Positions 10,953 through 63,156 of a DNA stretch of 64,000 nt are shown piece by piece (within the stretch, counting starts at the first letter, position 1; every line of letters begins with the position of its first letter). The stretch is from the NCBI GenBank assembly GCA_041937175.2, contig CP166615.1:64001-128000 (forward strand). Direction: 5' to 3'. The notes beneath the pieces were generated by a model that was given only the letters and a program-made list of their open reading frames with translations, was not told where the DNA came from and ran no database searches. The position numbers and the translations under genes are program-made. The stretch is from Limnothrix sp. BL-A-16. Its GTDB lineage: Bacteria > Cyanobacteriota > Cyanobacteriia > CACIAM-69d.

Positions 10953-11256
10953 GGGTCTGTCGTCATTGCTTGAAATCAGGTGAAAACGGCTGATTCACCA
11001 TGCCCCCAGTGCCGTAACAAGGGGCTTAAGCCCCTTGCTGCCCACGATTCGCTAACGGTGGAATTAGGGTTTCAGGCGACATACCCCCAGTGCCGTAACA
11101 AGGAGCTTAAGCCCCTTGCTGCCCACGATTCGCTAACGGTGGAATTAGGGTTTCAGGCGACATACCCTCAGTGCCGTGACAAGGAGCTTAAGCCCCTTGC
11201 TGCCCACGATTCGCTAACGGTGGAATTAGGGTTTCAGGCAATTTGACGGCAAGCCC
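10953..11256. mobile_element. Family-A MITE with internal 81-bp unit triplicated
   Basis: Degenerate TIRs GGGTCTGTCGTCA / TGACGGCAAGCCC; units start at 10999, 11080 and 11161, each carrying the palindrome. Confidence 0.8.
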
Positions 11257-27942: not shown

Positions 27943-28074
27943 GAGGATGTCTGAGCAGTGGCTGGGGGAGCTTGCAAAGGTGCTAGTAGCCTTAGGAACA
28001 AGGGGCTTAAGCCCCTTGTCTGCGTTGATCAATCCAACTCACCAGGCGACAATTTGAGCTTTTCAGATATCCTC
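27943..28074. mobile_element. Family-B MITE starting immediately after the fraE stop codon
   Basis: TAA|GAGGATGTCTGA...TCAGATATCCTC|TAG; palindrome 27999-28018. Confidence 0.85.
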
Positions 28075-28258
28075 TAGCGGCCATCCTCCAGCTCAGGAGG
28101 CGATCGCCTATTCAACACATCCCCACGCGAATCGCCAATATACGCATACAGGACGAGAGACCTCGAGTTTTTCAAGAATCTCCCCTAAATCGATTGGAAA
28201 TGTGTACTTTCGGGAACCCTTTGGCTTATCCTGAAAACGACTTCGTTGCAAAATCCCT

Positions 28259-60749: not shown

Positions 60750-60916
60750 GAACAACCCAAAGCCCAGTAGCGCGACAGGCTTAATACATTGGGTCAAAGT
60801 TGCGGAGCCAGTCGTGGTAACAAGGGGCTTGAGCATCTTGCTGCTTAACGATCGGGTGGCGGTAACAGCCATATCATTTAACCCAGCGAATTAAGGCAGC
60901 CACGCTACTAGCCTGA

Positions 60917-61047
60917 GAGGATGTCTGAAAAGCCAAAATCGATACTCTGCACGCCTCATCGATCGACGAAGACAAGGGGCTTAAGCCCCTTGCCCCCACG
61001 ACTATTGGTGCATTGCCCGTGCCAAAAGACACTTTTCAGACATCCTC
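60917..61047. mobile_element. Family-B MITE with perfect 16-bp TIR and TGA duplication
   Basis: TGA|GAGGATGTCTGAAAAG...CTTTTCAGACATCCTC|TGA; palindrome 60973-60992. Confidence 0.92.
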
Positions 61048-61240
61048 TGAGAGTTGATCGCCCCTGGCAACCGACAAAACTCGGTTGTTATACTGGCTGG
61101 TCGGGCTAGCCTCTCCTGCGTGGTGCGGTGTCTATGGTGGTTGAGTGTTTCCAGCTTTCAACCAAGCTTGGCCATGTTGGGCTAAGCAACATTGGGCTGG
61201 GCAAGGCTTGGCTAGGGTTAATCAACAATTGGTGATTCCC

Positions 61241-61852
61241 ATGTTTAAGAATTTGGCTTCGGATGCCTTGGGCCTCAGTGACATTGGAGTGGTGATTCGT
61301 CCCCAGGATTACGGCAAAGTTGACGCGGACGACTACATCATCAATGAAGAAGGTGAGAAAATCTATTTTTTGATTAAGTCCAAGATGGATGAATATTGCT
61401 TCACCAACTTGGCGCTGATCCATGTGGATGGCACATCGGCTGTCAGCAAGAAACGCACTTTGCGGCGCTTTAACTATGCCCACCATGCCATTTCCCATGT
61501 GACTTTGGAAACAGCGGGAACGCTCGATCGGGATGTGGAAATTAAGTTTTCCATGGGCAGCCAGCATTACTCGATCGATGTGGCCAAAGTCCATATTCAC
61601 GAACTCAAGGACTTGTATAAAGCCCTGCTGAAAATCGCTTTGATTCAGCAGGAAAATACTGCGTTTCATGGCTATGCACAAACCAGCTTGAACACGGCGG
61701 CCACCACCATCAGTCGATCGACCAGCACTTCAACGGCCGAAGAGCAATTCAAGGCCATTAACCAATACGCATTCAATTGGTTAAAGTTGGCCCATGAGTC
61801 CTATGTGCGCAAAGATTTTGGGGAAGTTTTCGAGAAGTTTATTAATAACTAA
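61241..61852 (+). CDS. Bacterial PH domain protein (YvbH-like)
   Basis: MFKNLASDALGLSDIG, DEYCFTN, LETAGTLDRDVEIKF. Confidence 0.88.
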   Translation: MFKNLASDALGLSDIGVVIRPQDYGKVDADDYIINEEGEKIYFLIKSKMDEYCFTNLALIHVDGTSAVSKKRTLRRFNYAHHAISHVTLETAGTLDRDVEIKFSMGSQHYSIDVAKVHIHELKDLYKALLKIALIQQENTAFHGYAQTSLNTAATTISRSTSTSTAEEQFKAINQYAFNWLKLAHESYVRKDFGEVFEKFINN

Positions 61853-61874
61853 CTGCGGGCGGGGTTGGGGCTTA

Positions 61875-62161
61875 GGGGCCGTTGCCAAATCCTCGGAAAA
61901 CCTGATGCTACCGTTACCGAATCGCTAGGCAGCAAGGGTCTTAGGGCGTGTCGTCATTTCCTAGGATCAGGTGAAAACGATTGATTTTCCATGTCCCAGT
62001 TGTTGTAACAAGATGCTCAAGCCCCTTGTCCCTCACGATCTGCCAACGGTGGAATCAGGGTTTCAGGCGATTTGACGACACGCCCTAAGCCCCTTGTTAC
62101 GACGACGGGAACCGGGGAAAGCAACCGGCTCGGCTGGATCCCAGAAAATGATGGCGCTCCC
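61875..62161. mobile_element. Nested family-A MITEs: degenerate outer copy containing an inverted inner copy (61944-62085)
   Basis: Inner perfect 13-bp TIR GGGCGTGTCGTCA, flanked by CAAGGGTCT-TA and TA-AGCCCCTTG; outer arms match the family-A arms in reverse orientation. Confidence 0.88.
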
Positions 62162-63156
62162 TAATCTTCCTCAATGCGGTAACCCAAATCGGCCAGGCGA
62201 GCGGGCGATCGCCGCCACTTGGGTTGCAGTTTCACATACAACTCCAGGTAAACCTTGCCATCAATTAACTTTTGAATTTGTTCGCGGGCTGCTGTGCCGA
62301 TCGCCTTCAGCATGGAACCGCCTTTGCCGATGAGAATTGCTTTTTGGCTGGCCCGTTCAATGTGAATTGTGGCCAAGACGCGGGTAATTTTCGGGGTTTC
62401 CTCCACCCGATCGATTTCCACCGCCACGGAATGGGGAATTTCATCCCGGGCATGGAGCAAAATTTGCTCGCGGATTAGCTCACCCATGATGAATCGTTCG
62501 GGGCGATCGGTCACCAGTTCCGGGGGGTAATAAAACGGGCCCGGCGGCAGTCGATCGATCAGCGCCTGCAATAACTCCTCCGTGCCCTCGCCCTGGAGTG
62601 CCGAAAACCGCACGATCGGCCAACCCCGATCGGTCGCCAAGGCCGCGTAGGACTCTTCCACCGTCGGATCCGTTTGCAGATCAATTTTGTTCAGCCCCAA
62701 AACCACCGGCACGGGCGCTTGGGCCAACCATTCGGCCACGAAGCGATCGCCCCCGCCTGCTTCCACTGACCCATCCACCACAAACAGCAGCAAATCCGCC
62801 GAATGGATGGCCATGCGTGCATTGGCCACCAACACTTTGCCCAATTCGTGGTGAGGTTTATGAATTCCGGGCGTGTCTACAAACACAATTTGCGCGTCAT
62901 CCCGGGTCAGGATGCCCCGCAGTCGGTTGCGAGTGGTTTGGGCGATCGGGGAGACAATGGCCACCTTTTGCCCCACCAAACCATTCATCAGCGTGGACTT
63001 GCCCACATTGGGCCGCCCCACAATTCCCACAAAGCCCGATCGAAAATCGTCGGGAGCCGTCGGAATTCCCAAATTCAGCGCCTCTAGCATTTCATCCAAC
63101 GAGTTGGCCACAGCGGCGCGATCGTCCGTTGGCTGGGAATGCTGTTCAATGCTCAT
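62161..63156 (-). CDS. era: GTPase Era
   Basis: GRPNVGKST, QTTR, DTPG, NKID, KH domain ILIGKGG. Confidence 0.97.
   Translation of the reverse strand: MSIEQHSQPTDDRAAVANSLDEMLEALNLGIPTAPDDFRSGFVGIVGRPNVGKSTLMNGLVGQKVAIVSPIAQTTRNRLRGILTRDDAQIVFVDTPGIHKPHHELGKVLVANARMAIHSADLLLFVVDGSVEAGGGDRFVAEWLAQAPVPVVLGLNKIDLQTDPTVEESYAALATDRGWPIVRFSALQGEGTEELLQALIDRLPPGPFYYPPELVTDRPERFIMGELIREQILLHARDEIPHSVAVEIDRVEETPKITRVLATIHIERASQKAILIGKGGSMLKAIGTAAREQIQKLIDGKVYLELYVKLQPKWRRSPARLADLGYRIEED

Follow-up and report, generated by a model that had tools for sequence, protein, structure and literature searches.

A 142-bp miniature inverted-repeat transposable element of Limnothrix sp. BL-A-16 inserts preferentially into a 20-bp palindrome that it carries at its own centre

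We analyzed a stretch of 64,000 nucleotides (the window) from contig C1 of the Limnothrix sp. BL-A-16 genome (G000; 4.54 Mb, 55% G+C); coordinates given without a contig prefix are those of the window. The spacer at 61853-62160, which separates two convergent genes, contains a 142-bp MITE (miniature inverted-repeat transposable element), inserted into the centre of a palindrome that belongs to a second, degenerate and inverted copy of the same element. We regard it as very probable that two successive transpositions of this MITE family, termed family A, took place at the locus and that the nesting arises from a preference of the transposase for the palindrome. The latter, termed P, is a perfect 20-bp palindrome (CAAGGGGCTTAAGCCCCTTG) at positions 66-85 of the family A consensus. 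Statistics on the insertion sites and two pairs of empty and occupied sites establish P as a strongly preferred target of the family A transposase. The locus is composed of the following features, where TIR stands for terminal inverted repeat.

61145-61852, plus strand: gene for a bacterial PH-domain protein, flanking the spacer
61873-61874: TA, left target duplication of the outer copy; the same-genus genome G002 has a single ...GCC-TA-ATCTTCC at the equivalent place
61875-61943, minus strand: outer family A copy, first part, consisting of a degenerate end GGGGCCGTTGCCA, an arm and the left P half CAAGGGTCTTA (61933-61943)
61942-61943: TA, left duplication from the inner copy, equal to the centre of the outer copy's P
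61944-62085, plus strand: inner, by its sequence younger, family A MITE, 142 bp, non-coding
61944-61956, plus strand: left TIR of the inner copy, GGGCGTGTCGTCA
62009-62028: central palindrome of the inner copy itself, an allele termed P*, with centre TCAA and no TA
62073-62085, minus strand: right TIR of the inner copy, TGACGACACGCCC
62086-62087: TA, right duplication from the inner copy
62086-62161, minus strand: outer family A copy, second part, consisting of the right P half TAAGCCCCTTG (62086-62096), the other arm and a degenerate end TGATGGCGCTCCC (62149-62161)
62161-63156, minus strand: gene for an Era-like GTPase with MMR_HSR1 and KH_2 domains, flanking the spacer
62162-62163: TA, right duplication of the outer copy; this TA and the final C of the element make up the TAG stop codon of the GTPase gene

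The two ends of the inner copy are complementary at 13 of 13 positions. To the left, this copy is bordered by CAAGGGTCT-TA (61933-61943), and to the right by TA-AGCCCCTTG (62086-62096). Ends and P halves together form a 24-nt inverted repeat, detected in a repeat search, that is 96% complementary and has its sole mismatch in the left half-site. For in silico excision, the inner copy plus one TA was removed, and the joined flanks were aligned to the family consensus. The outer copy obtained in this way was 77% identical to the family A consensus over 115 nt, in the orientation opposite to that of the inner copy, and the junction coincided with the P centre of the consensus. The segment 61875-61943 aligns to the reverse complement of the family A right arm, whereas the arm at 62086-62161 clusters with family A left arms read in reverse complement. 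The outer ends at 61875-61887 and 62149-62161 are degenerate, and each adjoins a TA of its own (61873-61874 and 62162-62163). The repeat search also paired 61867-61938 with the right half of the inner copy (62022-62093; 71% complementary over 72 nt) and 61867-61897 with its left end (61936-61966; 71% identical, 31 nt). A first-pass annotation of the window had described a 142-bp element with perfect TIRs in the duplicated central TA of a palindrome, flanks that represent the arms of an older, inverted copy, and an imperfect palindrome at 62009-62028, which has three mismatches to P. Each of these statements is borne out, and the outer arms have their own ends, their own TA and a junction at the P centre.

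To judge by its sequence, the inner copy, which is 89% identical to the consensus, is the younger of the two. A twin with a single mismatch over 142 nt is located at C1:3230905-3231046, where a copy of another MITE family (family B, see below) serves as host. There is no open reading frame (ORF) of at least 40 aa within 61944-62085. As single-stranded DNA, the inner element folds into one long hairpin that exposes the central palindrome at its tip (-23.6 kcal/mol, z = -2.8).

Comparison with a related genome revealed the state of the locus before the outer insertion. In G002, the flanking genes are 90-96% identical to those of G000, but the spacer has merely 33 bp and contains the TA only once. 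It is thus an empty site for the outer copy, and both copies are absent there. The two flanking genes are on separate contigs in G001, which precluded an orthologous comparison with this genome. The insertion of the older copy took place in the TAG stop codon of the Era-like GTPase gene (62161-62163), at its TA, and the reading frame is unchanged because the TA duplication and the terminal C of the element rebuild the stop codon. A search of 61700-62300 against Rfam gave no match at E values up to 1, and a scan of the same interval for promoter and terminator consensus sequences gave nothing. Since the inner copy carries an allele devoid of TA, nesting at this locus has probably stopped.

The search of the genome with the inner copy showed that family A is a large family, far beyond anything that chance could yield. 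We obtained 334 matches by blastn, 84 of which were near full length, and 840 matches by nhmmer; after the removal of double-strand matches, 115 copies that reach both ends remained. The consensus has 142 bp and the ends GGGCCTGTCGTCA. Of the full-length copies, 75 have TA on both sides, and P is present with at most three mismatches in 110 and exactly in 69, whereas the exact 20-mer occurs 326 times in the whole genome. Family A shows the features of a bacterial MITE, namely, a length below 500 bp, absence of coding capacity, TIRs, TA duplication, dispersed copies, presence or absence between relatives, and an autonomous insertion sequence (IS) with matching ends. It was found in G000, G001 and G002 only; G003, from another genus of the same family, gave matches to the ends alone, and G013 and G040 matched the query solely in the P region. 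A sister MITE of 189 bp with the same ends and no internal P is represented in G000 by 10 matches of at least 120 nt.

The flanks of the 115 full-length copies consist of both P halves in 25 cases, of the right half only in 26, of the left half only in 4 and of neither in 60. Contig C1 contains 35,080 YTAR sites, of which 11,960 are outside ORFs of at least 120 aa, as well as 512 intact P sites (up to three mismatches), of which 430 are outside such ORFs. The two-sided class hence represents 21.7% of the copies, as compared to an expected 1.5% when all YTAR sites are considered (binomial p = 1e-21) or 4.5% when only YTAR sites outside ORFs are considered (p = 5e-11), under the assumption of independent events. 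This is the enrichment of palindrome-centre insertions over YTAR sites that the first-pass annotation had anticipated. Pre-insertion sites at non-palindrome loci were mostly YTAR, with CTAG (17), TTAA (11), TTAG (7) and CTAA (6) among 81 non-P matches, a number that was counted before double-strand removal. Among the 40 non-P sites with TA on both sides, position -3 was occupied by Y in 71 of 80 half-sites and position -4 by C in 44, and G was present at positions -5 and -6 in 34 and 35 half-sites, respectively. The base bias at non-P sites echoes the P centre in a weaker form.

To classify the surroundings of P, the 75 nt that follow every P half-site were clustered, which resulted in six arm types that pair into three MITE families.

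Family A: ends GGGCCTGTCGTCA, duplication TA, 115 full copies, 55 of which adjoin a P half (25 on two sides)
Family B: ends GAGGATGTCTGAAAAG, 3-bp duplication TNA with identical triplets on both sides in 71 of 93, 93 full copies, 1 of which adjoins a P half; example in the window at 60917-61047 (C1:124917-125047)
Family C: ends GTAGCGCG..., 22 full copies, of which 16 are bordered by TAG at either end and none adjoins a P half; example in the window at 60767-60907 (C1:124767-124907)

P is central in all three families, and some 12 bases beside it are similar among them. At one intergenic TA (about 27943-28075 of the window; loci L078-L081), a family B copy is present in G000 and a family A copy in G002 (contig C34).

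When the 25 two-sided copies were excised, the junction was the P centre of the host repeat in all 24 cases in which a repeat could be assigned. The host was a family B copy in 11 cases, with alignments of at least 80 nt; in 6 further cases, blastn gave a family B label on the basis of alignments below 50 nt that comprise essentially P alone. Family A was the host in 6 cases and family C in 1, and for 1 case there was no family match. Of the 60 non-P copies, none was located elsewhere within a copy of family A, B or C, despite the 3, 6 and 9 TA dinucleotides in the respective consensus sequences. The orientation of the inner copy with respect to its host was mixed, being the same in 11 and inverted in 6 of the cases with long alignments. 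Among 300 pairs of nested cases, only 3 were alike (at least 85%) in both inner copy and host, which indicates that most insertion events were independent; the three loci behind these pairs may have arisen from a single composite by copying.

Evidence for the event itself was provided by a public record of Limnothrix redekei, in which the 189-bp sister MITE is located in the P centre, with TA duplicated, at two sites. The orthologous sites of G000 have an intact P, which is solitary at C1:1908111 and inside a family C copy at C1:534335, and their flanks are 92-95% identical to those of L. redekei. These two pairs illustrate the mechanism and not its frequency, because the pattern search demanded a P junction. 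In four genomes, similar proportions of the exact element ends are immediately adjacent to a P half, namely 34 of 126 in G000, 20 of 56 in G001, 13 of 65 in G002 and 2 of 12 in G003.

The first-pass annotation had noted a resemblance to the IS427 subgroup of the IS5 family, with mobilisation in trans as the expectation. This is supported, as an autonomous IS with the same TIRs was identified in G003, where matching ends some 950 bp apart led to an element of 862 bp. Its ends are GGGGGTGTCGTCATTT and GGGGCTGTCGTCAAAA, and it contains two overlapping ORFs of 123 and 150 aa (overlap at positions 1949-1974 of locus L023), which match profile positions 2-112 and 111-258 of the IS5-family model NF033580 with scores of 139.9 and 135.4 bits, as compared to a curated cut-off of 110; PF13340 and PF01609 also match. 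The element is flanked by the P halves CAAGGGGCTTA and TAAGCCCCTTG, with TA duplicated, inside a short MITE-like host. Judged by features alone, it fits an IS5-family element with characteristics of the IS427 group, since it has the length, the inverted repeats, TA on both sides and two overlapping ORFs with a predicted frameshift. By visual inspection, it has no internal P and shares only its ends with family A, which would make the latter a type II MITE. In G000, a truncated remnant of the cognate IS (region C1:1150823-1151250), consisting of the left end and a decayed N-terminal ORF, starts at C1:1150891 in the P centre of a family A copy; a long ORF that appears kinase-like by eye directly follows the remnant. 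The two relatives of the IS on Leptolyngbya plasmids have 59-62% protein identity, the ends GGGCGTGTCATCAAT and a TA duplication. The nearest IS5-family elements in plasmids are annotated merely as "IS5 family transposase".

Several other resident elements were considered as mobilisers and discarded. Nine copies of 912-bp IS5-family elements, forming two 91%-identical sets, have ends that contain AGACCTCTTGCACGAAT, unlike those of family A. No family A end motif is near the single-copy IS5-family element at C1:3867267-3868000. Three resident copies of the DDE_3 (IS630-like) type end in CAGCCCTTACC, which is unrelated to the family A ends. A search of G000 for pairs of family A ends 400-4000 bp apart listed five candidates.

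We propose the following course of events. A family A copy first entered the TA of the short spacer between the PH-domain and GTPase genes, a step demonstrated by the empty site in G002. As read directly from the sequence, a younger copy then entered, in inverted orientation, the central TTAA of the P of the first copy, with a second duplication of TA. The mobilisation of family A in trans would be due to a transposase of the IS5 family that has features of the IS427 group and prefers the palindromic target GG(G/C)C-Y-TA-R-G(C/G)CC, for which P is the best match, and an abundant one. The transposase may read its target as a symmetric dimer. Since P is at the centre of family A, each insertion adds a landing site, so that copies can nest. 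The mechanism is conventional transposition of the cut-or-copy kind, carried out by an enzyme of the IS427-group type whose palindromic target is unusually specific. That nesting steers insertions to neutral DNA is plausible.

Recursion was documented at six loci at which family A is nested in family A, and at C1:3219727-3220081 we observed three levels, in the order B, A and A from the outside to the inside, where one of the tandem halves is absent. The first-pass annotation had inferred that each insertion delivers a new copy of its own target, which would allow recursive nesting. This holds insofar as P is carried by 110 of the 115 copies and both direct nests and one three-level nest exist, but P is also carried by families B and C and by more than 100 solitary sites. 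The corollary that the target is the MITE's own is not supported: P is central in families B and C, which themselves do not insert into it, the nested hosts with long alignments or a family A assignment are B in 11 and A in 6 cases, and P occurs in other cyanobacterial families in which family A was not found. The self-supply of targets thus looks incidental, a by-product of a palindromic core common to several MITE families.

A number of observations weigh against the proposal that two clean transpositions into a preferred target account for the data. The enrichment over intergenic YTAR sites is just about 5-fold when two-sided cases are counted, and the binomial test presumes independent events. 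The empty and occupied pairs of L. redekei provide no frequency, having been retrieved by a search that required the P junction. The flanks of the 189-bp sister MITE in G000 are mixed, with the right half only in 4, the left half only in 1, neither in 5 and both in none of 10 matches. Both Leptolyngbya plasmid relatives of the IS are inserted outside P. No intact cognate transposase was found in G000, G001 or G002 when the protein query was used in tblastn, although the near-identical twin of the inner copy points to recent mobility. Furthermore, one-sided copies are skewed (26 with the right half only versus 4 with the left half only), and right arms outnumber left arms in the genome (220 versus 130). 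Direct nests create tandem half-element repeats and should therefore be unstable; this instability may explain the existence of one-sided flank classes, but not their asymmetry. Clean nesting is insufficient to explain the arm asymmetry and the arrays, for which deletion, slippage or another process is needed. Tandem arrays of the right half of family A are located at C1:3246404-3246822 (period of about 68 bp) and in the window at 11018-11235 (C1:75018-75235; 81 bp).

The distribution of P is wider than that of family A. Of 435 classified intact P sites in G000, 91 belong to family A, 70 to family B and 14 to family C; a further 102 are without a clustered arm at either flank, and the rest are mixed or tandem. 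With up to one mismatch, P was found 387 times in G000, 357 times in G001, 140 times in G002, 46 times in G003 and 12-50 times in eight genomes of other cyanobacterial families (G011, G013, G015, G017, G021, G030, G037 and G040), whereas a reversed-pattern control gave no match in any genome. The exact 20-mer is present in at least five other cyanobacterial families. In the eight genomes (loci L062-L076), P is mostly solitary with mutually unrelated flanks; in some instances, its right half is repeated in short tandem arrays behind it. P itself forms tandem arrays in G000 at C1:2371944-2372095 and C1:1008405-1008534, with spacers of 17-24 nt and a period of 37-44 bp. P is hence not private to family A but a module common to other MITE families and solitary sites. 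As a short, GC-rich, highly repeated intergenic palindrome, it resembles repetitive extragenic palindromes (REPs) and bacterial interspersed mosaic elements (BIMEs), but the association of these with a Y1 transposase (REP-associated tyrosine transposase, RAYT) was not observed, as the single Y1_Tnp gene of G000 is free of P for 700 bp in both directions. No paper with the 14-nt core of P was retrieved in a text search.

The palindrome of the inner copy is representative of a frequent variant. In 29 of the 115 family A copies, the centre is TTGA or TCAA and lacks the TA. P* is a three-substitution allele with centre TCAA that is present in 68 exact copies in G000, of which 32 are in family A, 20 in family B, 11 in family C and 5 in other contexts, in both orientations relative to the arms. 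This suggests that unrelated elements may convert or exchange their central module.

These data permit other explanations of the locus and of P to be evaluated. The sequence could be read without any nesting, either as a 164-bp element whose 24-nt inverted ends include the P halves or as a product of local duplication or palindrome-mediated recombination. The 96% complementarity of the 24-nt repeat would agree with this, and half-element tandem arrays elsewhere in the genome resemble slippage products. We nevertheless consider it highly improbable, since 60 of the 115 full-length copies stop at the 13-nt ends with unrelated flanks, orthologous sites with an intact P exist, and the outer arms run into full family arms with degenerate ends and a TA duplication of their own at a site that is empty in G002. 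In addition, the inner copy is inverted with respect to the outer one and closer to the consensus (89% versus 77%), and its near-identical twin is in a different host, a family B copy. The notion that family A is a MITE of the IS630/Tc1-mariner type moved by resident IS630-like elements deserves hardly any credence: TA is duplicated, often at CTAG, and three DDE_3 copies reside in the genome, but their ends are unrelated to those of family A, and matching ends are carried by an IS5-family element.

Two further explanations concern the reason why P is carried. One considers P a small mobile or convertible module, comparable to the small dispersed repeats of Nostocaceae (see below), that entered MITE families and intergenic sites independently and is a pre-existing landing pad instead of an inheritance from an IS-derived ancestor. 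This is possible, albeit doubtful. It would account for the central position of P in three families with differing ends and duplications, for the 102 solitary sites and the tandem arrays, for the exact P with unrelated flanks in at least five other cyanobacterial families, for the 68 exact P* copies across A, B, C and other contexts in both orientations, and for the absence of P, by eye, from the 862-bp IS. However, in each family P occupies precisely the centre of symmetry, which would be expected of a shared ancestral core, the approximately 12 neighbouring bases are also similar, the sole Y1 transposase gene of G000 is not flanked by P, and neither a target duplication around P alone nor a clean presence/absence polymorphism was found, although no systematic search for these was made. 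The other holds that carrying P is an adaptation by which the MITE delivers its own landing pads and gains harmless sites, low host cost and a high copy number. In its favour, 110 of the 115 copies carry P, family A supplies at least 91 of the 435 classified intact P sites, its 115 full copies compare with 10 matches of at least 120 nt for the P-less sister MITE with the same ends, and nested copies are in non-coding repeats by construction. We judge it rather unlikely, because families B and C carry a central P without targeting it (1 of 93 and 0 of 22), so that P carriage is explicable without self-targeting. Of A-borne P sites, 6 of 97 are occupied, which does not exceed the value for solitary P (about 7 of 109) and falls below the value for B-borne P (11 of 81). 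Moreover, 60 of the 115 copies are at non-P sites, 29 have a centre without TA, and P extends to other cyanobacterial families, in which no family A copy was found. More speculatively, and in our estimation unlikely as a whole, P could be an independent palindromic module with a wide and probably horizontal spread among cyanobacteria, used as the landing pad by one IS427-group transposase lineage. MITEs built on P would then form a self-expanding network of safe sites in which each jump adds a pad, copies come to lie within copies and direct nests collapse to half-element arrays, and P* would be an "immune" pad, spread by conversion, that shuts the process down.

The nesting of family A by way of a target preference for P offers a bacterial example in which the preference of a transposase coincides with the content of its non-autonomous derivative, so that transposition feeds back on target supply and builds nested repeats. 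It provides a testable system for the reading of extended palindromic targets by IS5-family transposases and exposes a 20-bp palindrome common to several MITE families and cyanobacterial lineages. Nests and half-element arrays are also a source of assembly breaks and local rearrangement in such genomes.

Among known systems, the closest are ISs that target palindromes. Tobes and Pareja (2006; PMC1525189) list IS1397 and ISKpn1 (IS3 family), IS621, ISPpu9 and ISPpu10 (IS110 family) and ISRm22 (IS4 family), and their account includes REP targeting in five IS families, among them IS5. Like these elements, as they are portrayed there, family A inserts specifically into a short, highly repeated intergenic palindrome; unlike them, for which the REP is a host repeat that is not borne by the element, it bears the target centrally and nests in itself. 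P further differs from REPs in that it has no link to a Y1 transposase (RAYT) in G000. REPs typically start with GTAG, and P does not.

Similarities also exist with other MITEs. According to a review (PMC10969869), QMITE2 of Coxiella burnetii has an internal palindrome that is the insertion site recognised by IS1111, and like family A it is thus a MITE with an internal palindrome targeted by an IS. IS1111, however, belongs to the IS110 family, and the review does not describe it as mobilising QMITE2, whereas here the same MITE family and its own type of parent IS insert into the palindrome. The plant MITEs Castaway and Gaijin show frequent self-insertions and multimers (Jiang and Wessler 2001, as summarised in PMC5172404), and PIF/mPIF has an extended 9-bp target preference (PMC6327408). 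Family A hence shares with the IS5-related PIF/Harbinger MITEs, as characterised in these sources, extended target preferences and, for some families, self-insertion at high frequency, but the latter are eukaryotic and duplicate 3 bp (TTA/TAA). No report of a conserved central palindrome as a hot spot in plant MITEs was found, Castaway and Gaijin being judged from the secondary summary.

The IS427-group elements IS1248 and ISPaes1 of Paracoccus have 832-865 bp, inverted repeats of 12-21 bp, 2-bp direct repeats and two overlapping ORFs with frameshifting (PMC3281130); the portion of that source devoted to them does not describe palindrome-specific targeting, in which the 862-bp IS differs. The latter fits all of the tabulated features, its frameshift being predicted from sequence.

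The small dispersed repeats (SDR) of Nostocaceae are reportedly about 20-27 nt long, scattered and present in MITE-like contexts. Compared by description only, P resembles them in being very short, scattered in a cyanobacterial genome and located within MITEs. SDR-like repeats are limited to Nostocaceae in the account of PMC5861425, which found none outside this family, whereas P is present in other cyanobacterial families. Our literature search did not bring up a bacterial MITE with recursive nesting whose centre is the preferred target of its own transposase, a point for which the work of Elhai et al. (2008) on SDRs and of Jiang and Wessler (2001) on plant MITEs could be relevant. Taken together, the targeting of repeated palindromes by ISs is already known, and the combination of a self-borne target with recursive nesting would be a new variant of it.

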